Source: a virus (lineage: Duplodnaviria > Caudoviricetes). From it: DNA of 52,224 nucleotides. Shown here one piece after another: positions 1 through 52,224 of this stretch. The notes beneath the pieces are model-generated. The model saw only the letters and a list, made by a program, of their open reading frames with translations, did no database searches and had not been told where the DNA came from. Each line of letters starts with the position of its first letter. Within the stretch, counting starts at the first letter, position 1. The DNA lies in IMG/VR virus record IMGVR_UViG_3300032242_000862, positions 1 to 52,224 of that record. One strand, written 5' to 3'. The translations under genes and the position numbers were made by a program.

Positions 1-123
1 GTACTACGAGCGGATTGCACCGCTGAGTTCAACCAACCAAACCAACTGGCTGACACAAAACGCACCGAACGCCATGTTGTTCGGAACCTTGTTGCAGGCG
101 ATGCCGTTCCTGAAAAATGACCA
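1..123. repeat. Terminal direct repeat, copy 1 (circular assembly overlap)
   Basis: 1-123 is identical to 52102-52224 and lies within a gene that reads across the junction. Confidence 0.97.
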
Positions 124-226
124 GCGCACCATTTTCCAACAGAAGTACGCCGAGGCGCTCAAATCCTTGAAAGAGGAAGATGTGTCGCGCATTGGTGATC
201 GTCAAGCCGTTGCTGTGGACTCCTAA
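1..226 (+). CDS. 3' end of the head-tail adaptor-like protein that starts at 51689 and wraps the junction
   Basis: The frame continues ...YYERIAPLSSTNQTNWLTQNAPNAMLFGTLLQAMPFLKNDQR...AVAVDS to TAA at 224-226; the next ATG is at 229. Confidence 0.8.
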   Translation, partial: YYERIAPLSSTNQTNWLTQNAPNAMLFGTLLQAMPFLKNDQRTIFQQKYAEALKSLKEEDVSRIGDRQAVAVDS

Positions 227-3709: not shown

Positions 3710-6328
3710 ATGCCAATGATACCGGGTCGTTATGAACATGACCAACAAACAAACGAGTCTGTATGGGTGCCTGCTCATTGGGAGCAAGGCAATACTTCGT
3801 ATGGCTCTCAAGAAGAAGAACAAAAAGCCTCGGAAAAATTGAAATCCGAGCAAGAAGCTGCCGCACTGAAAAACTTCAAGCCTGATGAAAGCAGTTGGTC
3901 AAGCAAGTACATTGACCCAAAATCTGTGTACATCAATGGCTATGAGCAGAAAGCCACAGGAACGTATCGCACTGACCAAAACGGTGAGCCAGAGGCTGTA
4001 ACCGAAGACGACTTGAGCCGTCCAATTTATGCGGGTACGTTGAACATCAATGGCCAAAAATTTATTGGTACTTTCAATGCTGATGGCAAATTTGCTGGTG
4101 CCACTGGCGAACGGATCGACAATAATTTTCAACAGTGGCTCACGCCTGAAGGCAATTTAACAGCGTTAAAAATCAGCGATCCGGGCATGAGTATTGGCGA
4201 CTTCGCCAAGATGATTGCACCTTTGGCGATCAACCTTGCGTTCCCCGGCGCTGGCGCTGCAATTGGCGGTGCTTTAGGTGCTGGTGCTACATGGGCACCC
4301 GTTGTGGGCGGTGCTGTGATGGGCGGCGGTTTGGCTGGCCTGACTGGCGGCAACATCCTTCAAGGCGCAGTAATGGGCGGTCTTGGCGGTGCAAACAACG
4401 TTGGGATCGGAAGCACAGGTATCACTGTTGGCGATGCTCTGAAAGGCGTCAGGGCTGCTCAAGCATTGGGCAGTGGAAACATCCTTGGTGCATTGTCTTC
4501 AATTGCCAGTATGTCTGGTGTTGGAAACATCAAGATTGGCGACACTGGCTTCACGATCAATGAAGCGGCAAAAGACATCAACATTGCCAATGCGTTGATC
4601 AAAGGAAACTTGCCTGCCTTTTTGAATACGATGTCTGCGATTGCTAAGGCATCAAACAACACAGCAACATCTGTGTTGAATTCAGACAAGCCATTGAGCA
4701 AAGATGATCTTGAGAGTCTTGACCCTGATCAACGTGCTGCATACGATGCCAAGGGAACTGCTGGCCTGAAGGCGTACAACGAACAACAAAAAGCAAATTC
4801 TTGGGTTGACGAAAATACCAGCCAGAATGAAATAGATCGTCTGATTGCGCTGCACCCAGCACAGCAAACTGAGCAACCAACTGTTGAGCAGCCACCTTCT
4901 GGTGGTTTGCCACCTGTTGAGACGGTGCATGTTGGCTCTAACGTTCCCAACCAAAACGTTGATTTGAGCAATGCAACACCATCACCTACTGGTGGTCTTC
5001 CTACAAGCTCAACACCAGCCATTGAAACGGTGAATGTCACAGCGCCGTCAGACAAACTTGTTGATCTGACTGATCAGACTCCTCCGACACGCAGCCTCAC
5101 TCCTTCTACTCAAACACCACCTTTGGGTACGATCAGAGTGACTGCTCCTAAGTGTGAGCCGGGTTATCATTTTGATGAGGAAGTTGGGGCTTGCGTTCCT
5201 GATGAGGCCGCGCTTCCACCCGTACAAACAACAACACAACCTACACCTACAAACCCCAAAGACCCCGTAGTTCCTGACGAAATTGTCATCACGGCAACAA
5301 AAAACCCGATTGACTTGAGCACCGTCAATGACGCAACAGTCACGACAACGCCATTGACGCCACCAGCTATTACACAAACTCCTGTCGCAACGACAAAAAC
5401 ACCAACGACAAGCAGTTCAAAAAGCTCCAGCGGCTCAGGTTCTTCGTATGCTGACATGAAGCTGAACGAATATGAGAAGTTCTTGAAGGGTATTTACAGC
5501 CCTGAAAAGCTGGCTCACTTGGCATCATTGCATCAGCTATTCAAGTCTTTGACGCCAGACATGCAAGAGGTTTTGGCTGCAAAGAACATTGTTCCACCAT
5601 CGATGCTGGATTCAGGATCATCACCACAAGAAAATTCGACTATGAACGAAAAAGACTATGCGACTGTTTTTTCAGCGTCTGGTGGATCAATTGCCAGTGA
5701 CATGGCCAAAATGATCAACGACATGAACCCAAAGTACGAACGAGCACCCACCATGCTGGCAGCAGCGCCTGTGAATCAGAGCCCATCGCCACTTGGTACG
5801 CTCAAACACATTCGCCAAGGCCCTCTGAAGGGCGCAGGACTGTCTGGAGGGCTGGCCCATGGGGGTCTGCCCCATAAGTACGCTGAAGCGGCTCCAAAGG
5901 GCCATAATCCCGAATTCATCACTGGGGTGACTGGTTACTACGCCCAAGGCGGTGGAACTGGCCAGTCGGACGACATCCCCGCCATGTTGCACGATGGCGA
6001 CTTCGTGATGGATGCCGACACTGTAGCGGCTTTGGGCGACGGCTCCAGCAAGGCAGGTGCTGAGGTGCTCGAGAAGATGCGCACCAGCCTGCCTCACCAC
6101 AACACCCCCGGCACTGGTCACCCCGTGCCTGCCCAGATTGCTGATGGTGAATATGTGTTCCCAGCGGCCTTTGTCACGGCCATCGGTGGTGGCTCAAACA
6201 AGCTGGGGGCCAAGCGCTTGAATGAAATGCGTGAGAAAATCAGGGCACACAAGCGGTCAGCACCCGACTCGAAAATTCCACCCAAGGCTAAGAGCCCCTT
6301 GGATTATCTGAAAATGGCGAAAGGTTAA
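3710..6328 (+). CDS. Internal virion / ejection protein (872 aa): Gly-rich membrane segment, P/T-rich linker, duplicated C-terminal SDDIPAML-DG-[DE]FV-type motif
   Basis: AAGGA RBS; Gly-zipper hydrophobic stretch; GTGQSDDIPAMLHDGDFV and VPAQIADGEYV resemble the motif found at the C-terminus of tape-measure and ejection proteins. Confidence 0.65.
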   Translation: MPMIPGRYEHDQQTNESVWVPAHWEQGNTSYGSQEEEQKASEKLKSEQEAAALKNFKPDESSWSSKYIDPKSVYINGYEQKATGTYRTDQNGEPEAVTEDDLSRPIYAGTLNINGQKFIGTFNADGKFAGATGERIDNNFQQWLTPEGNLTALKISDPGMSIGDFAKMIAPLAINLAFPGAGAAIGGALGAGATWAPVVGGAVMGGGLAGLTGGNILQGAVMGGLGGANNVGIGSTGITVGDALKGVRAAQALGSGNILGALSSIASMSGVGNIKIGDTGFTINEAAKDINIANALIKGNLPAFLNTMSAIAKASNNTATSVLNSDKPLSKDDLESLDPDQRAAYDAKGTAGLKAYNEQQKANSWVDENTSQNEIDRLIALHPAQQTEQPTVEQPPSGGLPPVETVHVGSNVPNQNVDLSNATPSPTGGLPTSSTPAIETVNVTAPSDKLVDLTDQTPPTRSLTPSTQTPPLGTIRVTAPKCEPGYHFDEEVGACVPDEAALPPVQTTTQPTPTNPKDPVVPDEIVITATKNPIDLSTVNDATVTTTPLTPPAITQTPVATTKTPTTSSSKSSSGSGSSYADMKLNEYEKFLKGIYSPEKLAHLASLHQLFKSLTPDMQEVLAAKNIVPPSMLDSGSSPQENSTMNEKDYATVFSASGGSIASDMAKMINDMNPKYERAPTMLAAAPVNQSPSPLGTLKHIRQGPLKGAGLSGGLAHGGLPHKYAEAAPKGHNPEFITGVTGYYAQGGGTGQSDDIPAMLHDGDFVMDADTVAALGDGSSKAGAEVLEKMRTSLPHHNTPGTGHPVPAQIADGEYVFPAAFVTAIGGGSNKLGAKRLNEMREKIRAHKRSAPDSKIPPKAKSPLDYLKMAKG

Positions 6329-7639: not shown

Positions 7640-9265
7640 ATGGCAGAACAAACTACAGGTGGCTTGCAGTCAATTCTTGATCCCAAGAACTATCCTATCT
7701 ATGACCGTCCAGAAGGTGGCACACCTACCTATGAGCAAGCTGGTCAGGACATCCTGAAGTCGCTCGAGCAACGCTATGCCCAACCAAACTGGTTTAAGGT
7801 CGCTGCAGGCTTTCTGAAGCCCCAACTTGGCGGTTTTGCTGCGTCCCTTGGATCGGCGTCAGAAGCATTGGCTGAGAACATCGAGCAACAGCGTGCCATG
7901 GCTTTGCCAATCGCAGAGGTACGTGCCAAACTGGCCCAAGGCCAAGCCATCATGGCTCAACACGTCCCTGTGGCTGATGAGATCAAAAAATGGCACACAG
8001 AGCATCCAAATGAGATGCCCACCCCCGGATTGGTTGCACACTGGGCATCCAAGGCACCTGACCTGCCTGCAGTGAAGCAGTTGCTTACCCAGCAAGAACT
8101 GGCTCAAAAGAATCAATCTTTGTTGGCCACACAGCAAGCAACAGAAATGAAGTTGTTGGCCGAACAACGAGCCAATGGTGACATCAGCGCAGAACAATAC
8201 AGAAGTGCCTTGGCAGCATTGCAAAATCGTTTGGGCGGCATGGCGTCTTCGCCAAAAGGTCCAACTCAAACAGAGGCTCAAGTTACTGCACCTGCTGCAC
8301 CCACAACAATGACTGCGCCTGCCATCCAAACGGCATCAGTCGAAAAGTTCGACTTGAGCGGTCCCGGTCGAGTAGATGCGGTCAAACAAGCCATCAACAA
8401 TCTCAAAGATCCAATTCAACGTGACTTGGCTATGAGGGCTTTGGAAGCACAGTTAAATCCCAATAATGTAAAAACTGAAACGGCAAAGCTCCCGGTTGAA
8501 CCAGCACCTGCAAAGAAAGCTGCTGAACCAGTGTTTGATACATCAAAATTTGAGATCAAGCCATCGTTCCATGCCGATCAACTTAACCCACGAGCAGTGA
8601 CTGAAGTAGAGAAGGCCAACAACGCACGTATTCTTGCGGGTGCCGATCTTCTTGAAGGTGTGAAGAAAAAACAATTTGAAAACCTGCAAATCGTTAATGA
8701 ACCAGTTGCGTTCAATACCGCAAAGGATGCAAACACTGCGGTTTTGGATGCGTTGGACAAATACCCAGAAAAAGCAGTGGCTACAACCAACATGCTTCGT
8801 CGAGCAGGTCCATTGGCATCTGCGTTGGCAAAAGGATTCGGTATCAATTTTGGCCCCTACGGTGTCCATGTTCGTGCTGAGGGCTTGGTGCCTGCTTTGT
8901 ATGCCAATCTCAAACCAGATGAGCAAGCATACCAAGATGCATTGTTGAACAACATTGCTCGAAGTGTGTACTACGATTTGAAAAGCCGTGGCATTGATCC
9001 TGAAAAAGAAGGCGCTGAAAAATTTGGTCAGCGCATGATGCAAGAAACTCATATTGAGCAAGGGCCTGCCGCTATTCATCGTGCAATTGCTCAAAACAAC
9101 ATTCGTTTGCAACACAATGCAAAGGTCTTTTCAACTTTGAGTAATTTATATCCAAAAGCAATTGCTGCTGGTTCATTGACTCCATTGCACGACATTCAAA
9201 TGCAACACCCTGAAATCAAGGTTTTGAATGGATTGCTTCAAAAACAGCTAAAAGAAGCCAACTAA
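7640..9265 (+). CDS. Probable ejection (internal virion) protein (541 aa)
   Basis: TAAGGA RBS; amphipathic NWFKVAAGFLKP..GGFAASLG segment followed by a helical region; operon position. Confidence 0.6.
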   Translation: MAEQTTGGLQSILDPKNYPIYDRPEGGTPTYEQAGQDILKSLEQRYAQPNWFKVAAGFLKPQLGGFAASLGSASEALAENIEQQRAMALPIAEVRAKLAQGQAIMAQHVPVADEIKKWHTEHPNEMPTPGLVAHWASKAPDLPAVKQLLTQQELAQKNQSLLATQQATEMKLLAEQRANGDISAEQYRSALAALQNRLGGMASSPKGPTQTEAQVTAPAAPTTMTAPAIQTASVEKFDLSGPGRVDAVKQAINNLKDPIQRDLAMRALEAQLNPNNVKTETAKLPVEPAPAKKAAEPVFDTSKFEIKPSFHADQLNPRAVTEVEKANNARILAGADLLEGVKKKQFENLQIVNEPVAFNTAKDANTAVLDALDKYPEKAVATTNMLRRAGPLASALAKGFGINFGPYGVHVRAEGLVPALYANLKPDEQAYQDALLNNIARSVYYDLKSRGIDPEKEGAEKFGQRMMQETHIEQGPAAIHRAIAQNNIRLQHNAKVFSTLSNLYPKAIAAGSLTPLHDIQMQHPEIKVLNGLLQKQLKEAN

Positions 9266-9275
9266 GGAGAATCGC

Positions 9276-10670
9276 ATGAGTGATCCAACAGAAGCCCAAA
9301 TTGAAGCTGAAATCAATCGAAGACTTGCCGAGGAATCAAAGCAAGGTGATGCAGAAGCAATGCCTGCGATAGATTACAAGTCAACTCAGGCAAAGTTACT
9401 TGAAGCTGAAAAAGCATTGCGTGATGCAGAGCAACAAAACAAGTCTGCTATACCCGGTGTAGACATTGCAAAAAGCATTTACAACGATTTGCCTCAAGAT
9501 ATACAGCCATATGCCCTTGGAACTGCTGGTTATCTTGGCGGTAAAGTCTTGCGTTCTGCATTGCCACAAGAAAAAGTGATGGGGACAAATGAATTTATCA
9601 ATGAGCAAAACAAACGGGAAGCATTGCTGCAAAGCAAAGAACCTGCACACCGGGCCTATGTTGAGGCCAACAACACTGCATTTGAAACTCAAGAAAATCA
9701 TCAAGCCAGAGCAAACATGTTGGCTCAACAACATGCATTGGCGCAACAGCAACATGAAGCAGCACTTGAAGAGCTACGACGTGCTCAAATGCAGCATGCC
9801 CATGCTCAGACATTGAGTGTTGACGAAGAAATGGCACGCAGAGCCCCTGCAATGGGCATTACAGGCCCTTCTGCATTACCAGCGCGGCTTACCCCTCAAC
9901 CAATTGGTGGAGAGGGCACAGCCTCGTATGCAATGAAATTTGGTGCCACGCCTGAAGAAGCTGCACGTGTTGCCAGCATGTCCAACATGCAACAGCAGAA
10001 CATCCCCGCGCAGGCTCAGGCATGGCAAAAAATCAATCAGATTGCACCGGGTTTCCAACAAGTGTCTGAGTCACCAATTTTGCTTGGTCCTGAAGGCCAA
10101 AAGTCTGTTGCTGAACGAGTTGGCAACATGACTGCAGAAGAGCGTCACAGGATTGATCTTGAGGCGCAACACAAAAAGCATTTGGCTGAACAATTGGCTA
10201 AACACAAGGCAACAGTTCAATTTGAATTAGACAGAGCACAAAAAGAAGCAAGCGCAAGAGCACAAGCTGCTGCTGATGCATTGAAGGCTCACCACAAGCA
10301 TGTGAACATTCCAGCCGTCACGCCTGAGCAATTGGCCAAGAGAGACACATCGCAACATGAGTACGCTGACATTTTGAAGCGTATTGAACAAACCAACCCA
10401 AGCATGTTGGCAAGACTTGGTCGTGTGGCTGGTCGGTTTGTGCCCGGCGCAGGTGCTGCATTTGCACCGATTGAGGCGTCAGCAGCCAAAAAGGCTTTTG
10501 ATGAGCAACAGTATCTTCGGGCTGCAACTCATGGCCTTGGTGCTTTGGGCGGTGTTTTGCAGTCAACAGCCATCCCACCGCTTGTTGGTGCTGGTGACTT
10601 GATGCAGATCCCGGCTGCTGGCCTGTCAATCTATGACTTGGCTAACGCAAAAAAATCAGGTCAACAATAA
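9276..10670 (+). CDS. Probable ejection protein (464 aa, coiled coil, hydrophobic C-terminus)
   Basis: AAGGAG RBS; last gene before the terminator; Gly/Ala-rich C-terminal hydrophobic helices. Confidence 0.6.
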   Translation: MSDPTEAQIEAEINRRLAEESKQGDAEAMPAIDYKSTQAKLLEAEKALRDAEQQNKSAIPGVDIAKSIYNDLPQDIQPYALGTAGYLGGKVLRSALPQEKVMGTNEFINEQNKREALLQSKEPAHRAYVEANNTAFETQENHQARANMLAQQHALAQQQHEAALEELRRAQMQHAHAQTLSVDEEMARRAPAMGITGPSALPARLTPQPIGGEGTASYAMKFGATPEEAARVASMSNMQQQNIPAQAQAWQKINQIAPGFQQVSESPILLGPEGQKSVAERVGNMTAEERHRIDLEAQHKKHLAEQLAKHKATVQFELDRAQKEASARAQAAADALKAHHKHVNIPAVTPEQLAKRDTSQHEYADILKRIEQTNPSMLARLGRVAGRFVPGAGAAFAPIEASAAKKAFDEQQYLRAATHGLGALGGVLQSTAIPPLVGAGDLMQIPAAGLSIYDLANAKKSGQQ

Positions 10671-26836: not shown

Positions 26837-26865
26837 TTGCCCAAGGCGTCGACCGAAGGCATAAT
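26837..26865 (+). promoter_or_regulatory. Sigma70-type promoter for the large protein and head genes
   Basis: TTGCCC-17 nt-CATAAT, 22 nt before the ATG at 26888. Confidence 0.55.
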
Positions 26866-26887
26866 TGGGCATTCACTGAGGGCAACC

Positions 26888-29800
26888 ATGGCAAAGAAAC
26901 CTTACCGCGACCCCACGACCACAAAGATCGAAGACTGGAAATGGCGCGACCTGCCTGAAGTGCAAAAGGCTGTGCCACTGAAAGCAGTTCCAGACTACAT
27001 TCAAAAGGGTTACGGCGAGTTCATGAACCAACAATTGGCACGTGCCAATGCTGGAGCACTGACGCCACGGGATCTGCTCAAGGCTTACACCATCACCCAG
27101 TCAAGCATTGGCCGTGGTGGTCTACCGCATTCAACGGCCACCAAGACTGGCATGCGACTGCCCAACACGGGCGGCGAGGTCAGGCCTGAAGGCGCATTTG
27201 CTGAGTGGCTGGGATCGCGTGAAGGCCAGATGTACCTTGACGCAGCCGAGCGCGGTGAGTTGCACCATGGCGCACTGAAGGACATCCAAGAGAAATTCGC
27301 CCCGTTCGGCAAGCAGAATCAATTGGCCGAGCAAATGATGTATGCGGCCAACACTGTGCCGGGCATGGCCAAGTCATTGAACAAAGCGATTGCAGGCCCG
27401 ACCGAGAATTACCGCAACTGGGCAGAGCAACTGAAGGGCATTGCAGGGGCCAAATCGGGCTTTATAGGCTCTATGCTGGGCAGGGGTGACCTACCTACCT
27501 TGGACGCCCGGCAATTGAACCTGCATGCCTTGCCTGCCAACGTAGGCGTATCTTCGATCATGAACCGTGGCAAGGGCAAAGGTGCCCGTGAAGCAGTTGA
27601 CCGCCTGATTGCCCGTCAGCGTGCCATGGGGCTTGAAGTTGACCCATCGATGCAGCCACACTACCAGCACCTGACCCATCATGCAGTGTGGGATGCAGTG
27701 GGCAAAAATCAGACAACCCATGACGACATCATCAAGGCCATGCGTGGTTATGAGGATGGCGGCTCGATCAATATGGCCCAAGGAGGCAACGTGAATCCAA
27801 AATATCCGTCCATTCAAGAGATGATTCAGAAACTGCAGGCGGCAGGCCGCACTCCTATCATCCCCATGCCCAACCGTTGGTTTGCTGACCCAGTGAAACA
27901 TCCCCATCAGCAAAAGATGATTGAGCGCGTGCTGGCAAAGACTGGATACGGACGCGAAGGTTTCCCATCAGGGGCATACATCAATCCGCAGACTGGTGAG
28001 CCCATGGACTTTGACATCATGCACGACTTGGGTGTGGCCATTGATCCAGTCACTGGTCGGCCCATGATGTCGGGCATCAAGTCTGGCCTGACTGAAATAG
28101 ATCCAAAATATGGATCGATCACAAAAAGCAATCTGGTGCGCAAAGGATTGTTCAAGCATGAAGGCGGCGACGAACTGCTCAAGAATCTTGCATTCCTTGC
28201 AACCATCGAGAAAAGCGGCAAGGGCCATCATTACGGCTTGGCAACGCAGTACGAATCTCCTGCCGAGCTTGTCAACACAATGACTGGTCAAAACCCAACG
28301 CTCAGGCCACACAGCCGTGGTGACATCTTCGGTGTTGGCGATGAAGTTGGTCGCATATCCATTCAGGGCAAGCACCATCCGGTCTACGAAAAGCTGGTGG
28401 TTGCGCCTGCTGGCTCTGACGTACAGGGCAAGAAGCTACATAAAGCCCAAGGAGGCGACGTGAAACCATTTGACTATGAGAATCCAGAGCATGTGCATGG
28501 CGTCGCGCACCACATGGCCAAGCACAAGGACTTCAGTCCGATCCCCAATGCGGCCAAGCATTTGGGTGAAATGCTGTCCGAGGGCAGCTACAAGCACATT
28601 GAAGACCCACGGTTCCAGCAAGCCATCCGCAAGATGGGTCATGGTGCATATTTCCTGCGTGGCAAAGAAGGCAAGACCCTGCATCACATGAAGTCAGGCG
28701 GCACACCGTCACTGGCTCAGATGAAGGTTCATTTGGCTGAAGGTGGCCAACCTGACTACAGCGAAGAACAACTCAAAAGCATTGCAACGTACTTGGCCAC
28801 CAACCCATCGGCTGAAGATCTGGCAAGTGCTCAACAACAATTTGGTGTGAGCAATGAAGGCTTGCAAGAAGCCAAGGATTACGCAGCAGCACATCAAGCA
28901 GCCGCTGAAACATCGCCTACTGCCAAAGCGCAAAGCGCAAGCCCCACTGGAAATGTGACCACTGGCCCCGGCAATGACAACTTTGTCCCTGCTGGTGGAA
29001 GCACGAAGGAAGGTTACTCACGAGATTACAGCGCGGCAGAACTTGCGGCCATTCGAAGCAGTTTTGACCAATATCAGACCGACCCCAAGAAATTGGTTGA
29101 ATTGATGAACCAATATGGCGTCAATGAAAAAGATTTGGCATTAGCAAGAACTGGAAACGCTAGAAACGAAACCTTGATGGGTTACGACAACTTGTTGCTG
29201 CAAGGCGGCGCAAAGGCTGGTTTTGGTGGCATGACACAAGCGTCTGACATGACCGCGCAAGACAAGGCATACCTTGACTGGATGCTGACTCAACCCAGCA
29301 TTGCTGGTGGCGGCACAAGGGCAGACGATTACAAAAAGCAAGGCATTGATCCATACACCGATCCGCGCATCCTCAACATGGCCAAAGCGCAAAATGCTCG
29401 CGTGGTAGACCGTGCAACTTTGTTGGACAACACTGCCAGAGATGCGGCAGCAAAGGCTGGAACTCCTTTTACCAGCACAAAACTGTACGACAACTCAGGC
29501 CAGCCCAATGATCAGATTGCCCCATGGCTGAACCCCAACGCGATTGCCAATGAAAAGGCATTCAAGGATGCAATTGCTGCCCGAAATGCAGCAGCCACAG
29601 CCGCAAGCCCAAAGGTGGTGATTGGTGGTGGCAACGCAACCCCAGCAGGCACAACAGGCACCACAACGCCTACAACAGATCCAGCGGTTCAAGAGGCTCG
29701 CAGTGCGCTTGATGCAATCAACAAAATGACTGGCAGCTATACCCAGATCAATGCAGCACGTGACAACTTTTACAACACAACAAAGTACACGCCAGAACAA

Positions 29801-31609
29801 ATATCTGCAGCCATGAATGGTGTTTTGTCGCCTGCGTACATCAAACAATTGATGGCCAAAAACCCACAGTTTGCAACAGGTCACGCTCAAGGCGGCATGG
29901 TTGGATATGCAGGTGGTGGCAATGTCAAGCCCAGCATTGCCCAAATGCGTCTGGCATTGAATTCAAAGAACCCAGTGGACTTCCAAGGCATTGGGATTGA
30001 AGAAGCACCCAACATGTCGCCCAAGGTGTACATGCCACCGTCCAAAGACGAGTCTGGACTTCCAGCCGTTGGCGGCGTGGACTTAAATCCACAACAACCC
30101 GGCCTGCAATTGACATCGCCTCCACCACAGCCTCCACAAGGCGCTCAACCACCACAGGGTGGCCAACCCCCTCAAGGCGGTCCAATGGGCGCTCCTATGG
30201 CCCCTCCTGCTGGTCCTACGCCACCCATGGGCAACATGCTGTCGTTGACACCACAAGGCCAAGCCATGCAGGCCATGCAACCACAACAGCAAAAACCACC
30301 GGGCATGAAAAGCGGTGGTGACGTGCAAGGAATGAGTGATGGCGAACAGCCAAAATTAACCAAAGAACAACGCAAAGAAGTTGCCAAAAAATGGGCTGGT
30401 CAACTGCATTACGAACCAGCACCTGCAATGTCAAAACGTGATATTGAACAACATGCTGAAAGAATGACATCTCAAATGATGGGCATTGACAACCCACATA
30501 AAAAAACAAAGCAACAACTTGACAGAGAAAAAAACCTCATGGCTGACATTCGGTACAAACGAATGAAAAACATCCCTAACGTTGACTATGCACAACTGAA
30601 AAATGCTTTTATGGTTGGCATTCCGGGCGACCCTACGCTTGGTGGTGTGATTCCAGTCTCCAAAATGAAAAAGCGTTATGGATTGCAAATGCCAACAGCA
30701 GGGGCTACGTTGCGCTCCATTGACAACAAGCCATTGGAAAGTTCGGTTCCACTATATGGCGGCACCAGATATGGAGCCTATGGTAGCCCCAATGCTTGGG
30801 CAAGCGATCTGGGAGCAAGTAGAGGGTTGTTCAACGTTGTCCAGAAACTGCACGAAGAAGATCCTTCGCGTGAAATCTATGGCAACACCCACCGCATGTC
30901 GAACGAATCAATCAACCATGCGATACACATGTTGGATGCGGCAATTTCGCATATGCGTCCGCATGCACAACCAAAAGAACACATTGATTATCTGAACAAT
31001 TTGATTCGCAATGTGCAGACGTCCACCAATGACATTGGGGACGTAAAGCCCCATTTTGCTGGTTTTGAAAACCCCGAAGATTTGATGTTGCAAGGGTCGT
31101 TGGATGCCAAGCTGCGCAAGAAAATCTTGGGTGTTTTGGCAACCAACAAGCATTTTCCCGGCGGCAAGCAAATGATTGACGACATCTATTTTGCAATCAG
31201 TCACCCTGAATTGCGCAATTTAGAAGTTGGCACTGCTGGACACGGTGTTCTGAAGTTTGATCCCACCCGAAAACTGGAAGATGAAATTTCACAGCATCCA
31301 ACCTATGGTCATGACATCCCTTCAACGCTTATTGGCAAGTCGCGTTACCCGATCCCACTGGCAATTGCAGCCCCAAGATCGATGCAACGAACCATGAGAA
31401 AGGCAAAGGAGATGGGTTTGACACCTGCTCAACCATTCAACGATATGTCTCGCAGCATTATTCGTGAGCCAATAGATGAGCAGTACATCAACCAATTGGG
31501 TGAATACGAAATGGCAATGCGCAAGCGCCTTGGGTACAAAAAGGGCGGTAAGGTTAAACTCAAACCCAATCAAGACACCATGCGTCTTGAACTGTCAAGG
31601 AAGAAATAA
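26888..31609 (+). CDS. Large modular (polyvalent-like) protein, 1573 aa; N-terminal HhH-GPD-like domain; modules separated by xAxGG/xKxGG motifs
   Basis: GAGG RBS before the ATG at 26888; nine GG motifs at domain boundaries; coupled to the portal gene (TAATG). Confidence 0.7.
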   Translation: MAKKPYRDPTTTKIEDWKWRDLPEVQKAVPLKAVPDYIQKGYGEFMNQQLARANAGALTPRDLLKAYTITQSSIGRGGLPHSTATKTGMRLPNTGGEVRPEGAFAEWLGSREGQMYLDAAERGELHHGALKDIQEKFAPFGKQNQLAEQMMYAANTVPGMAKSLNKAIAGPTENYRNWAEQLKGIAGAKSGFIGSMLGRGDLPTLDARQLNLHALPANVGVSSIMNRGKGKGAREAVDRLIARQRAMGLEVDPSMQPHYQHLTHHAVWDAVGKNQTTHDDIIKAMRGYEDGGSINMAQGGNVNPKYPSIQEMIQKLQAAGRTPIIPMPNRWFADPVKHPHQQKMIERVLAKTGYGREGFPSGAYINPQTGEPMDFDIMHDLGVAIDPVTGRPMMSGIKSGLTEIDPKYGSITKSNLVRKGLFKHEGGDELLKNLAFLATIEKSGKGHHYGLATQYESPAELVNTMTGQNPTLRPHSRGDIFGVGDEVGRISIQGKHHPVYEKLVVAPAGSDVQGKKLHKAQGGDVKPFDYENPEHVHGVAHHMAKHKDFSPIPNAAKHLGEMLSEGSYKHIEDPRFQQAIRKMGHGAYFLRGKEGKTLHHMKSGGTPSLAQMKVHLAEGGQPDYSEEQLKSIATYLATNPSAEDLASAQQQFGVSNEGLQEAKDYAAAHQAAAETSPTAKAQSASPTGNVTTGPGNDNFVPAGGSTKEGYSRDYSAAELAAIRSSFDQYQTDPKKLVELMNQYGVNEKDLALARTGNARNETLMGYDNLLLQGGAKAGFGGMTQASDMTAQDKAYLDWMLTQPSIAGGGTRADDYKKQGIDPYTDPRILNMAKAQNARVVDRATLLDNTARDAAAKAGTPFTSTKLYDNSGQPNDQIAPWLNPNAIANEKAFKDAIAARNAAATAASPKVVIGGGNATPAGTTGTTTPTTDPAVQEARSALDAINKMTGSYTQINAARDNFYNTTKYTPEQISAAMNGVLSPAYIKQLMAKNPQFATGHAQGGMVGYAGGGNVKPSIAQMRLALNSKNPVDFQGIGIEEAPNMSPKVYMPPSKDESGLPAVGGVDLNPQQPGLQLTSPPPQPPQGAQPPQGGQPPQGGPMGAPMAPPAGPTPPMGNMLSLTPQGQAMQAMQPQQQKPPGMKSGGDVQGMSDGEQPKLTKEQRKEVAKKWAGQLHYEPAPAMSKRDIEQHAERMTSQMMGIDNPHKKTKQQLDREKNLMADIRYKRMKNIPNVDYAQLKNAFMVGIPGDPTLGGVIPVSKMKKRYGLQMPTAGATLRSIDNKPLESSVPLYGGTRYGAYGSPNAWASDLGASRGLFNVVQKLHEEDPSREIYGNTHRMSNESINHAIHMLDAAISHMRPHAQPKEHIDYLNNLIRNVQTSTNDIGDVKPHFAGFENPEDLMLQGSLDAKLRKKILGVLATNKHFPGGKQMIDDIYFAISHPELRNLEVGTAGHGVLKFDPTRKLEDEISQHPTYGHDIPSTLIGKSRYPIPLAIAAPRSMQRTMRKAKEMGLTPAQPFNDMSRSIIREPIDEQYINQLGEYEMAMRKRLGYKKGGKVKLKPNQDTMRLELSRKK

Positions 31610-50529: not shown

Positions 50530-50742
50530 ATGAATTTAAAAGGTATCGTCACAGTGATTGCCGCCTTGTCTTTGATGGGCGTGGTCAGTTGCATGATTTA
50601 CATGTTCCTGTTGGCCATTTATGACCCAACTGTGGACGACAAAATTGTCTTTGACATTGTTGGCCCAGCCTTCCAAACAATCGTGGGTGGCTTCATTGGT
50701 CTGATCACGGGCATCCATATCTCAGACAAGAAGGACGAGTAA
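50530..50742 (+). CDS. Holin candidate (70 aa, 2 TM)
   Basis: Two hydrophobic helices and a charged C-terminus; GAGGT RBS; upstream of spanins and endolysin. Confidence 0.6.
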   Translation: MNLKGIVTVIAALSLMGVVSCMIYMFLLAIYDPTVDDKIVFDIVGPAFQTIVGGFIGLITGIHISDKKDE

Positions 50743-51209
50743 TGTCCATCTTCAACCCATACGTCATTTTAGGTTTTGTGCTGGCGCTCATTGGTGCGTT
50801 CTTCACAGGCCACCACAAGGGCTACGCCGAGGCTGAAGCAGAACAGCAAGCCGAGATTGCGCGACTCAATGCTGAGGCCCGTGAGGTCGAGCATGTTATG
50901 ACGTCCAAGGTAAATGACTTATCAAACAAACTACAGAAGGCCAACAATGATGCAAAAGTTGAAATTGTTAAGCGCAACATGTCTATCGCTGATGGCACTC
51001 TGCGCTTGTCAATCCCCACCAAAAGCCCCCTATGTGCCGCCACAGGCTCCACCCCTGCCAGCGGAGATAACGAAACAAGAGCCGAACTTGAGCCAGCGTT
51101 TGCTCAAGCTCTTGTCGCCATCACAGACGATGGAGACGCCGCCATCAGAAAGCTCAATGCCTGCATCGACGCCTACAACACCATCCAAACCATGAAAGTT
51201 GAACAATGA
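50742..51209 (+). CDS. Rz: Rz-like inner-membrane spanin
   Basis: N-terminal TM helix, coiled coil, G.LRLS and GD.AI..LNAC...Y motifs. Confidence 0.85.
   Translation: MSIFNPYVILGFVLALIGAFFTGHHKGYAEAEAEQQAEIARLNAEAREVEHVMTSKVNDLSNKLQKANNDAKVEIVKRNMSIADGTLRLSIPTKSPLCAATGSTPASGDNETRAELEPAFAQALVAITDDGDAAIRKLNACIDAYNTIQTMKVEQ
50947..51195 (+). CDS. Rz1: Rz1-like outer-membrane lipoprotein spanin embedded in Rz (+1 frame)
   Basis: MMQKLKLLSATCLSLMALCAC signal peptide and lipobox followed by a Pro-rich mature part, fully nested in Rz. Confidence 0.75.
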   Translation: MMQKLKLLSATCLSLMALCACQSPPKAPYVPPQAPPLPAEITKQEPNLSQRLLKLLSPSQTMETPPSESSMPASTPTTPSKP

Positions 51210-51688: not shown

Positions 51689-52224
51689 ATGGCAAACATC
51701 CCATCATGGGTAATGACGTATGACGACTTGACCTCCACAGTGCTTCAATACTTGGAGCGCAAGGACGCTGCTGTCGTCAATGCCATCCCAACATTTATTT
51801 CCCTTGCTGAGTTTGAAATTGCCCAAGAGATCAAAACCTTGGGTCAGTTGCAGATCGTTGAGTCGACCATGACATCGGCAAACCCAGTCCTGCAAAAACC
51901 TGCCCGGTGGCGCAAGACAGTTTCCATGAACGTCTCGATCAACGGTGTGCGCCAGCCTGTTCTGTTGCGTAAGTACGAATATCTCAAAAACTATTGGCCA
52001 GACAGCAGCAAGACTGACATCCCACTGTTCTACGCTGACACCGATTGGGAGCACTGGTATCTGGCACCAACTCCAGCGACCAATTACTCGTTTGAGGTTC
52101 TGTACTACGAGCGGATTGCACCGCTGAGTTCAACCAACCAAACCAACTGGCTGACACAAAACGCACCGAACGCCATGTTGTTCGGAACCTTGTTGCAGGC
52201 GATGCCGTTCCTGAAAAATGACCA
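51689..52224 (+). CDS. Head-tail adaptor-like protein (5' part; continues through the junction to position 226)
   Basis: AAGGA RBS; MTYDDL...YLER...IPTFI.LAE, P.FYA, APTP...Y.FE.LYY and NWL..NAP motifs; no stop before the window end. Confidence 0.75.
   Translation, partial: MANIPSWVMTYDDLTSTVLQYLERKDAAVVNAIPTFISLAEFEIAQEIKTLGQLQIVESTMTSANPVLQKPARWRKTVSMNVSINGVRQPVLLRKYEYLKNYWPDSSKTDIPLFYADTDWEHWYLAPTPATNYSFEVLYYERIAPLSSTNQTNWLTQNAPNAMLFGTLLQAMPFLKND
52102..52224. repeat. Terminal direct repeat, copy 2
   Basis: Identical to 1-123. Confidence 0.97.

Follow-up and report, generated by a model that had tools for sequence, protein, structure and literature searches.

Results

The P0001 gene and its linker motifs

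We analyzed the whole of the IMG/VR virus record IMGVR_UViG_3300032242_000862 (Duplodnaviria; Caudoviricetes), a stretch of 52,224 bp that is referred to below as the window. It is a complete virus record with direct terminal repeats and encodes a large terminase, a portal, a major head protein and tail fibres. Our subject is the product of one of its genes, a protein of 872 residues called P0001, whose predicted unstructured linker carries short motifs resembling the TonB box of TonB-dependent transporters (Table 1).

P0001 is composed of a variable N-terminal part, a Gly/Ala-rich segment, a Pro/Thr-rich linker and a conserved C-terminal domain; a protein identical to it is present in a metagenome collection. 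The Gly/Ala-rich segment, which reaches Kyte-Doolittle values of 1.2–1.5 in 19-residue windows and has 18–34% Gly per 50-residue block, is common to about 12 of the first 120 homologues and is possibly membrane-active. In the linker, Pro, Thr and Ser together make up 36–46% of the residues. This part is hypervariable among homologues and, with the exception of a Cys hairpin, is modelled as coil in the full-length AF2 prediction (pLDDT 25–34, from a shallow 8-row alignment). By contrast with these parts, the C-terminal domain is the only portion of P0001 common to 117 of the first 120 homologues. AF2 models it with a pLDDT of 71 and an internal duplication of two similar hairpin-plus-helix units, and its matches in BFVD are uncharacterized proteins of uncultured phages only. 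The first 150 residues of P0001 contain no hydrophobic stretch. Because the protein thus lacks a hydrophobic N-terminus, its export by the producing cell is unlikely, and it would therefore meet periplasmic TonB only if it were delivered from the virion.

A preliminary description of this DNA had placed four motifs in a Pro/Thr-rich linker downstream of a Gly-rich hydrophobic segment, three of them followed by [VI]DL[ST]. Translation of 3710–6328 recovered all four at the nucleotide starts given in Table 1, the [VI]DL[ST] sequences do follow motifs 1, 2 and 4, and the linker and the Gly-rich segment lie in the order described.

Table 1 Features of the P0001 gene and of the surrounding structural and lysis genes, in window coordinates
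Feature	Position	Strand	Details
P0001 gene, 872 aa	3710..6328	+	Open reading frame (ORF) list and translation
Gly/Ala-rich, moderately hydrophobic segment	4187..4537	+	aa 160-276
Pro/Thr/Ser-rich linker	4853..5470	+	aa 382-587; predicted unstructured
[TS]-G-[GA]-L-P-[TS] motif, two copies	4893-4911 and 4983-5001		aa 396-401 and 426-431
Motif 1 window	4916..4948	+	aa 403-413; ETVHV (aa 404, nt 4919); 1.0 bits
Motif 2 window	5021..5053	+	aa 438-448; ETVNVTA (aa 439, nt 5024); 9.4 bits
Motif 3 window	5123..5155	+	aa 472-482; GTIRVTA (aa 473, nt 5126); 5.2 bits
Motif 4 window	5273..5305	+	aa 522-532; DEIVITA (aa 523, nt 5276); 14.3 bits
[VI]DL[ST] sites	4955-4966, 5060-5071, 5309-5320		VDLS, VDLT and IDLS, after motifs 1, 2 and 4
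Two-Cys beta-hairpin module	5153..5197	+	aa 482-496; only structured linker element predicted
Conserved C-terminal domain	5507..6325	+	aa 600-872; family-defining; last ~150 aa nearly invariant
SU10-type adaptor	51689-52222 and 2-226		Split across the record ends
Podovirus tail nozzle protein, 673 aa	1446..3467	+	Upstream neighbour of the P0001 gene
Three genes, 432, 541 and 464 aa	6331..10670	+	Directly downstream of the P0001 gene
Rz-type spanin gene	50742..51209	+	PF03245, E 1.2e-6, 29.3 bits against a cut-off of 25.4

Scoring of the motifs against real TonB boxes

The motifs were scored with a matrix learned from 47 transporter genes, which were found by the Pfam Plug domain (PF07715) in Burkholderiales-type genomes: four Burkholderiales/Betaproteobacteria bins that contain relatives of the P0001 C-terminal domain (see below) and 20 relatives of one of these bins. 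We used the transporter genes whose locus came with upstream sequence and left out two in which the Plug match lies at the contig start and the N-terminus is missing (L029 and L032), as well as one below the Pfam cut-off (L061). When the 45 residues ahead of each Plug match were searched without supervision for a motif of width 11, with one site per sequence, the search settled on the TonB box, which lies about 15 residues upstream of Plug and has the consensus L-[DG]-x-V-V-V-T-A-x-R. The 46 unique sites all went into the matrix uncurated; about three of them look misplaced. In leave-one-out scoring, the real boxes had a lower decile (q10) of 4.0 bits, a lower quartile (q25) of 9.3, a median of 15.3 and a maximum of 25.5. 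The matrix proved specific, with scores of at least q25 in 3 of 27,320 windows of transporter bodies, and with 3 matches in the 58,441 residues of the family's C-terminal domains. Across the phage proteome (65 ORFs), at least q25 was reached by 6 of 15,922 windows, two of which lie in P0001.

Motifs 4, 2 and 3 are the three best matrix windows of the whole of P0001, and motif 1 comes seventh. Motif 4 scores near the real-box median, is the top match among all windows of the 65 ORFs and is conserved in the homologue P0007. Motif 2 lies at q25, motif 3 lies above q10 but below q25, and motif 1 (ETVHVGS) falls below q10. Thus, the earlier count of four TonB-box-like motifs stands in part: motifs 4 and 2 score like real boxes and agree with the consensus at q25 or above, motif 3 is weak, and motif 1 is not box-like by the matrix. 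At the position of motif 3, close homologues keep a box directly before a Cys hairpin.

We then compared the linker with randomized versions of itself. Two or more matches of at least q25 in the 201-residue linker had a P value of 0.0008 in 20,000 composition-preserving shuffles and of 0.0015 in shuffles within 20-residue blocks, and the sum of the three top windows gave P = 0.00005 and 0.00025, respectively; the reversed linker contained no match of at least q25. The TonB-box excess in the P0001 sequence taken alone is thus real but modest (P about 0.001). Neither Tandem Repeats Finder nor a direct-repeat scan detected DNA repeats over the motif copies, which therefore did not arise by recent DNA duplication; the only DNA-level repeat in the linker is one of 19 nt at the two GGLP sites. 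Two structure-directed searches were uninformative. A 24-residue segment around motif 4, too short a query, had no phmmer match in PDB at E ≤ 10. A predicted complex of P0001 residues 505–548 with the TonB C-terminal domain, the latter given as an alignment of 25 sequences of which the first comes from genome G002, scored 0.23 against a mark of 0.32; made without controls, this prediction counts neither way.

Recurrence of the boxes across the family

The C-terminal domain defines a very large family, almost entirely from uncultured phages, for which 5,034 cluster representatives (50% identity) were found at E ≤ 0.001; among deposited phages it was found in one of 50,697 records (MW202545.1). 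Many viral proteins of 120–190 residues consist of little more than this domain. As a family sample we took the best 120 rows of the metagenome-collection search and the best 150 of the 5,034 cluster representatives, two sets that overlap and yield 239 proteins, and scanned the 233 that have at least 60 residues upstream of the C-terminal domain.

These 233 upstream regions contained 147 matches of at least q25, compared with 15.4 in 20-residue block shuffles (200 rounds, maximum 25) and 13 in the reversed regions. At or above the real-box median, there were 60 matches as against 0.35 in block shuffles (maximum 2) and none in reversed sequences. The excess is thus family-wide, amounting to a factor of 10 at q25 and of more than 100 at the real-box median. 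At least one box of q25 or better is present in 69 of the 233 proteins. The preliminary description had proposed that the ejected protein may engage host TonB directly, with several boxes working as a ratchet, and had made this depend in part on enrichment over composition-matched controls and on recurrence in homologues; both were found, the former in linker shuffles, in block shuffles and across the family.

With P0001 excluded, at least one box occurs in 68 of 232 proteins (13.0 expected) and at least two in 33 of 232 (0.5 expected). Including P0001, 34 proteins carry arrays of two to six boxes, spaced 11–180 residues apart, and many of the array boxes score 16–23 bits, above the real-box median. 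Among 114 further 50%-cluster representatives, 24 had one box or more, where 5.5 are expected, and 9 had two or more, where 0.21 are expected; grouping the arrays at 50% identity leaves 41 distinct clusters for the 69 proteins that bear boxes. Because the new representatives and the array clusters both keep the excess, redundancy does not explain it. These two measures replaced a single-linkage clustering of whole upstream regions, which collapsed 218 of the 233 into one cluster. The relative in MW202545.1 carries a single box of 18.3 bits; this homologue is very Cys-rich around it.

Specificity of the likeness

We also asked how far the likeness extends beyond the core of the motif. For this flank comparison, phage instances were selected with a loose pattern for the core, modelled on the TonB box. 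At positions that the pattern leaves free, a Leu or Ile three residues before the core is conserved, and Lys or Arg stands two residues after T-A/G in 54 of 78 instances; these flank preferences are the same as those of transporter boxes. In the reverse direction, a matrix made from 120 phage instances gave the true TonB box the highest rank in 37 of the 47 transporters. Blanking its four pattern-constrained columns still left this box among the top 1% of windows in 26 of the 47. A sub-flavour of the motif, [ML]G.[IV]E[IV], appears 11 times in 8 phage proteins, where 0.54 occurrences are expected, and likewise in 6 of the 47 transporter N-termini but nowhere in transporter bodies. Pro and Thr are enriched in the flanks of the boxes (13% versus 7% and 14% versus 10%, respectively). 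In close homologues, the linker has been rebuilt from modules such as Pro-rich repeats and Cys hairpins, and the box persists. Taken as a property of sequence, TonB-box mimicry is thus well supported; the likeness is statistically strong at the level of the family and moderate for P0001.

Other motifs of the linkers

The boxes share the linkers with other recurrent elements. The G[GA]LP motif occurs 213 times in 110 of the 233 upstream regions, as against 15.9 times in shuffles, and a nearly invariant (≥90%) GGLP opens the conserved C-terminal core. [VI]DL[ST] was counted 44 times in the family (12.2 expected), and 8 of the 36 proteins bearing it also hold a box. Motif 3 of P0001 runs directly into a Cys-x13-Cys hairpin, with strands at 486–489 and 494–497 in the AF2 model (pLDDT 55–57). 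This module has the form C-x-P-G-x-H-Y/F-D-E-x4-C and, in close homologues (P0003–P0008 and P0015), stands directly after the box in up to five copies; altogether there are 34 occurrences in 17 of the 233 proteins and none in shuffles. The module would be prone to disulfide formation, a curious feature in a protein that would enter the oxidizing periplasm. Some homologues have precomputed PF01607 matches. A TolB-box pattern of five residues had no match in the 233 upstream regions and so gave no sign of a Tol-type alternative in the members without boxes.

Gene neighbourhood and probable host

The upstream neighbour of the P0001 gene is identified as a nozzle gene by a phmmer match of its product to PDB 8zkk/8zkm ("nozzle gp16", E 6e-6) and, as a virion structural protein, by PHROG (E 1e-29). 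Since the window also encodes an Rz-type spanin, the host has an outer membrane (Gram-negative). By its gene content, then, the phage of the window is short-tailed (a podovirus) and infects a host with an outer membrane.

The P0001 gene follows the nozzle gene, with one ORF of 77 residues between them, and together with the three genes downstream it makes up a four-gene block that ends the structural module. The 432-, 541- and 464-residue products of these three genes have no PHROG or Pfam match. The same block, headed by the P0001 homologue, is present in MW202545.1 (L001) and in a binned contig (L003), and the order of adaptor, nozzle and P0001 homologue is the same in both. The fourth gene of the block in MW202545.1 encodes an SLT lytic transglycosylase domain (E 2e-16); this domain was looked for and not found in the 464-residue protein of the window, which has no detectable relation to that gene product. 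P0001 thus lies where the internal, ejected proteins of podoviruses are encoded, in the structural module and beside the adaptor and nozzle genes, and from this gene order it is probably an internal (ejected) virion protein. Two features of these genomes stand apart: in MW202545.1, a gene annotated as "3-oxoacyl-(acyl-carrier-protein) synthase" (9135-10079) lies within the tail and internal-protein block, and in the window an ORF of 1,590 residues without PHROG or Pfam match (26837-31609) lies between the terminase and portal genes.

Homology offered little on the identity of P0001. Its PHROG matches are weak and fall on tape-measure families (E 1.6e-4 to 6e-3), the whole protein had no phmmer match among PDB sequences, and homology to a characterized ejection protein was found neither in PHROG, Pfam and PDB sequences nor in the fold search with the C-terminal domain. 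An atlas lead to a crAss cargo-protein domain (score 0.82) was unsupported by Pfam even at E ≤ 10.

For the host, we scanned genome contigs for the C-terminal domain. A single-sequence scan found no locus, and an alignment-based scan found 10. Four of the 10 contigs are binned as Burkholderiales/Betaproteobacteria metagenome-assembled genomes from freshwater-type assemblies, and all four of these bins encode TonB and TonB-dependent transporters. The bins hint weakly at the host lineage, or else reflect mis-binning; the host is plausibly a freshwater betaproteobacterium.

Discussion

Given that boxes like those of transporters recur in the linkers of a protein family that is probably ejected from the virion, P0001 may carry mimics of the host TonB box that engage TonB during entry, a reading to which we give an even chance on the sequences at hand. 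P0001 would leave the capsid through the tail nozzle, its linker would enter the periplasm, and the boxes would pair as an extra beta-strand with the TonB C-terminal domain, as the boxes of transporters and group B colicins do. The ExbB–ExbD–TonB motor, driven by the proton-motive force, might then hold P0001 or pull it inward, with successive boxes providing successive grips. Such a pulling or ratchet function would be a natural extension of TonB binding, and it is drawn wholly from the parallel with group B colicins and pyocins. In its fullest form, the motor would take hold of one box after another and draw the ejection protein, together with the front end of the genome, from the tail across the periplasm. 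This would be a colicin-like, hand-over-hand import by a virus, powered by the proton-motive force and used throughout a family of more than 5,000 clusters with arrays of two to six boxes; we put this forward tentatively and consider it rather doubtful.

Several observations weigh against TonB engagement by these linkers. In P0001 itself, motif 3 is weak and motif 1 is not box-like, and at the background rate of the phage about 0.23 matches are expected in the protein, such that two are only moderately unlikely. Isolated matches of 9.5–13.4 bits also occur in four unrelated proteins of the same phage, so that a single match is not diagnostic. At the family level, 164 of the 233 members have no box at q25, which means that boxes are not needed for the core function of the family, and none of the 10 homologues on genome-bin contigs holds a box at q25. 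The instances used in the reverse test were themselves chosen by a TonB-box-inspired pattern, and only its flank-only version is independent. The choice of Burkholderiales for the matrix goes back to the 4 of 10 bin assignments, which possibly reflect mis-binning, and this group may not be that of the host. The location of P0001 in the virion is taken solely from gene order. Finally, P0001 belongs to no Pfam family and its C-terminal domain has no PDB fold match at E ≤ 0.001; the family is thus one without known function or fold.

One alternative is that the boxes are a genuine, selected linear motif whose strand-pairing partner is not TonB but some other protein, for instance a second ejection protein, the channel of the portal or nozzle, or a different protein of the host periplasm, the likeness to TonB boxes reflecting a general grammar of edge strands. 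The prevalence of members without boxes would suit such a partner, as would the other enriched linker motifs to which no partner is assigned (G[GA]LP and [VI]DL[ST]) and the position of the box directly before the Cys hairpin in the closest homologues, as though it belonged to a larger repeat. We nevertheless consider it unlikely, as the match reaches into flanks and sub-flavours specific to transporter N-termini and the signal is lost in reversed sequences and local shuffles. Furthermore, only some of the boxes are accompanied by the Cys module, and their spacing varies from 11 to 180 residues, which disfavours a fixed structural repeat. A structural beta-repeat was rejected as the principal explanation on account of this irregular spacing and of the coil-modelled linker.

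Binding to TonB could also serve an end other than entry. A linker with several boxes might act as a decoy that occupies TonB and stops TonB-dependent uptake, thereby excluding TonB-dependent phages and bacteriocins or perturbing the host. TonB-box peptides are reported to inhibit TonB-dependent transport, and multivalent arrays of up to six boxes would suit sequestration. A cell, however, contains hundreds of TonB molecules, against the few copies of an internal protein that one virion can bring in, and the gene lies in the structural block and not among early genes; a decoy therefore strikes us as improbable. On the side of the decoy, TonB-box peptide conjugates directed at TonB are described in PMC9841981.

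Least of all do we favour the view that the motifs have no function of their own and arose as by-products of low-complexity linkers rich in Val and Thr, of expanding repeats or of captured transporter fragments. The modest excess in P0001 alone, the isolated matches in other phage proteins and the hypervariability of the linkers would all fit it. Yet the excess over shuffled, block-shuffled and reversed controls is family-wide, the arrays form 41 independent clusters, the copies in P0001 are not DNA repeats, and the box survives where the linker around it diverges. As far as sequence comparisons go, the low-complexity explanation is already disfavoured by the family-wide controls, and we regard functionless motifs as very improbable.

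TonB engagement at entry would have partial precedents. The box of transporters, which precedes Plug (PF07715), and the phage motifs share the consensus hydrophobic-x-x-V/I-x-V/I-T/S-A/G-x-R/K, and the phage motifs are predicted to sit in a flexible segment, as the transporter box does. Unlike the transporter box, the phage motifs are not N-terminal in a protein with Plug and barrel, are present in 2–6 copies instead of one, and belong to a phage-encoded protein that lacks a signal peptide; they are known here from sequence alone. Group B colicins, S-type pyocins, pesticin and klebicin E (PMC3390615, PMC10994204, PMC10906532 and PMC8469651) have their own TonB box in a disordered region and are pulled into the periplasm by the Ton system. 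This import of a box-bearing foreign protein is our working model for P0001. Bacteriocins hold one box near the N-terminus and enter through the barrel of a transporter. In P0001, by contrast, several boxes lie inside the chain (aa 438-532), the protein is a putative virion component and it would enter by way of the phage tail; Pfam detects no bacteriocin domain in P0001 and there is no PDB sequence match, so that the domain layout of colicins and pyocins is absent.

Among phages, the g3p protein of filamentous phages binds TolA. As proposed here for P0001, a protein of the particle thereby engages, at entry, the periplasm-spanning arm of a Ton-related system coupled to the proton-motive force; the differences are that the system is Tol and not Ton, that a folded domain and not a linear motif is used, and that the phage is a filamentous single-stranded DNA phage and not a podovirus. 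The ejection proteins of T7 (gp14-16) and P22 (gp7/gp20/gp16) resemble P0001 in that the gene directly follows the nozzle gene and the product is a large, partly disordered protein with a Gly-rich hydrophobic segment, and the lytic transglycosylase domain of one relative's block partner (in MW202545.1) adds to the likeness. P0001 differs from them in having no detectable homology to any characterized ejection protein. Infection by T1 and phi80 depends on TonB and the proton-motive force, and the dependence is described as operating via the receptor FhuA (PMC11658791); the passages of that review considered here mention no TonB box on a phage protein. Our literature search, which left subscription journals and part of PMC outside, found no description of a TonB box on a phage virion protein. 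A TonB box on an imported foreign protein is known, and what would be new here is its presence in multiple copies and on a putative phage virion protein.

How short-tailed phages bring internal proteins and the start of their DNA through the periplasm, and from which energy source, is still an open question, and the TonB dependence of phages has so far been ascribed to the receptor. The claim of TonB binding can be tested with peptides and TonB domains and needs no phage culture. If true, a multi-copy TonB box on an injected protein would link phage entry directly to the proton-motive force of the host and would extend the import principle of colicins and pyocins to viruses. New routes to resistance, through tonB and exbBD, would be predicted, and because the flavour of the box would have to match the host TonB, the boxes would be new determinants of host range. 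For metagenomic phages, they would provide a sequence signature for ejected proteins and perhaps for the host lineage.

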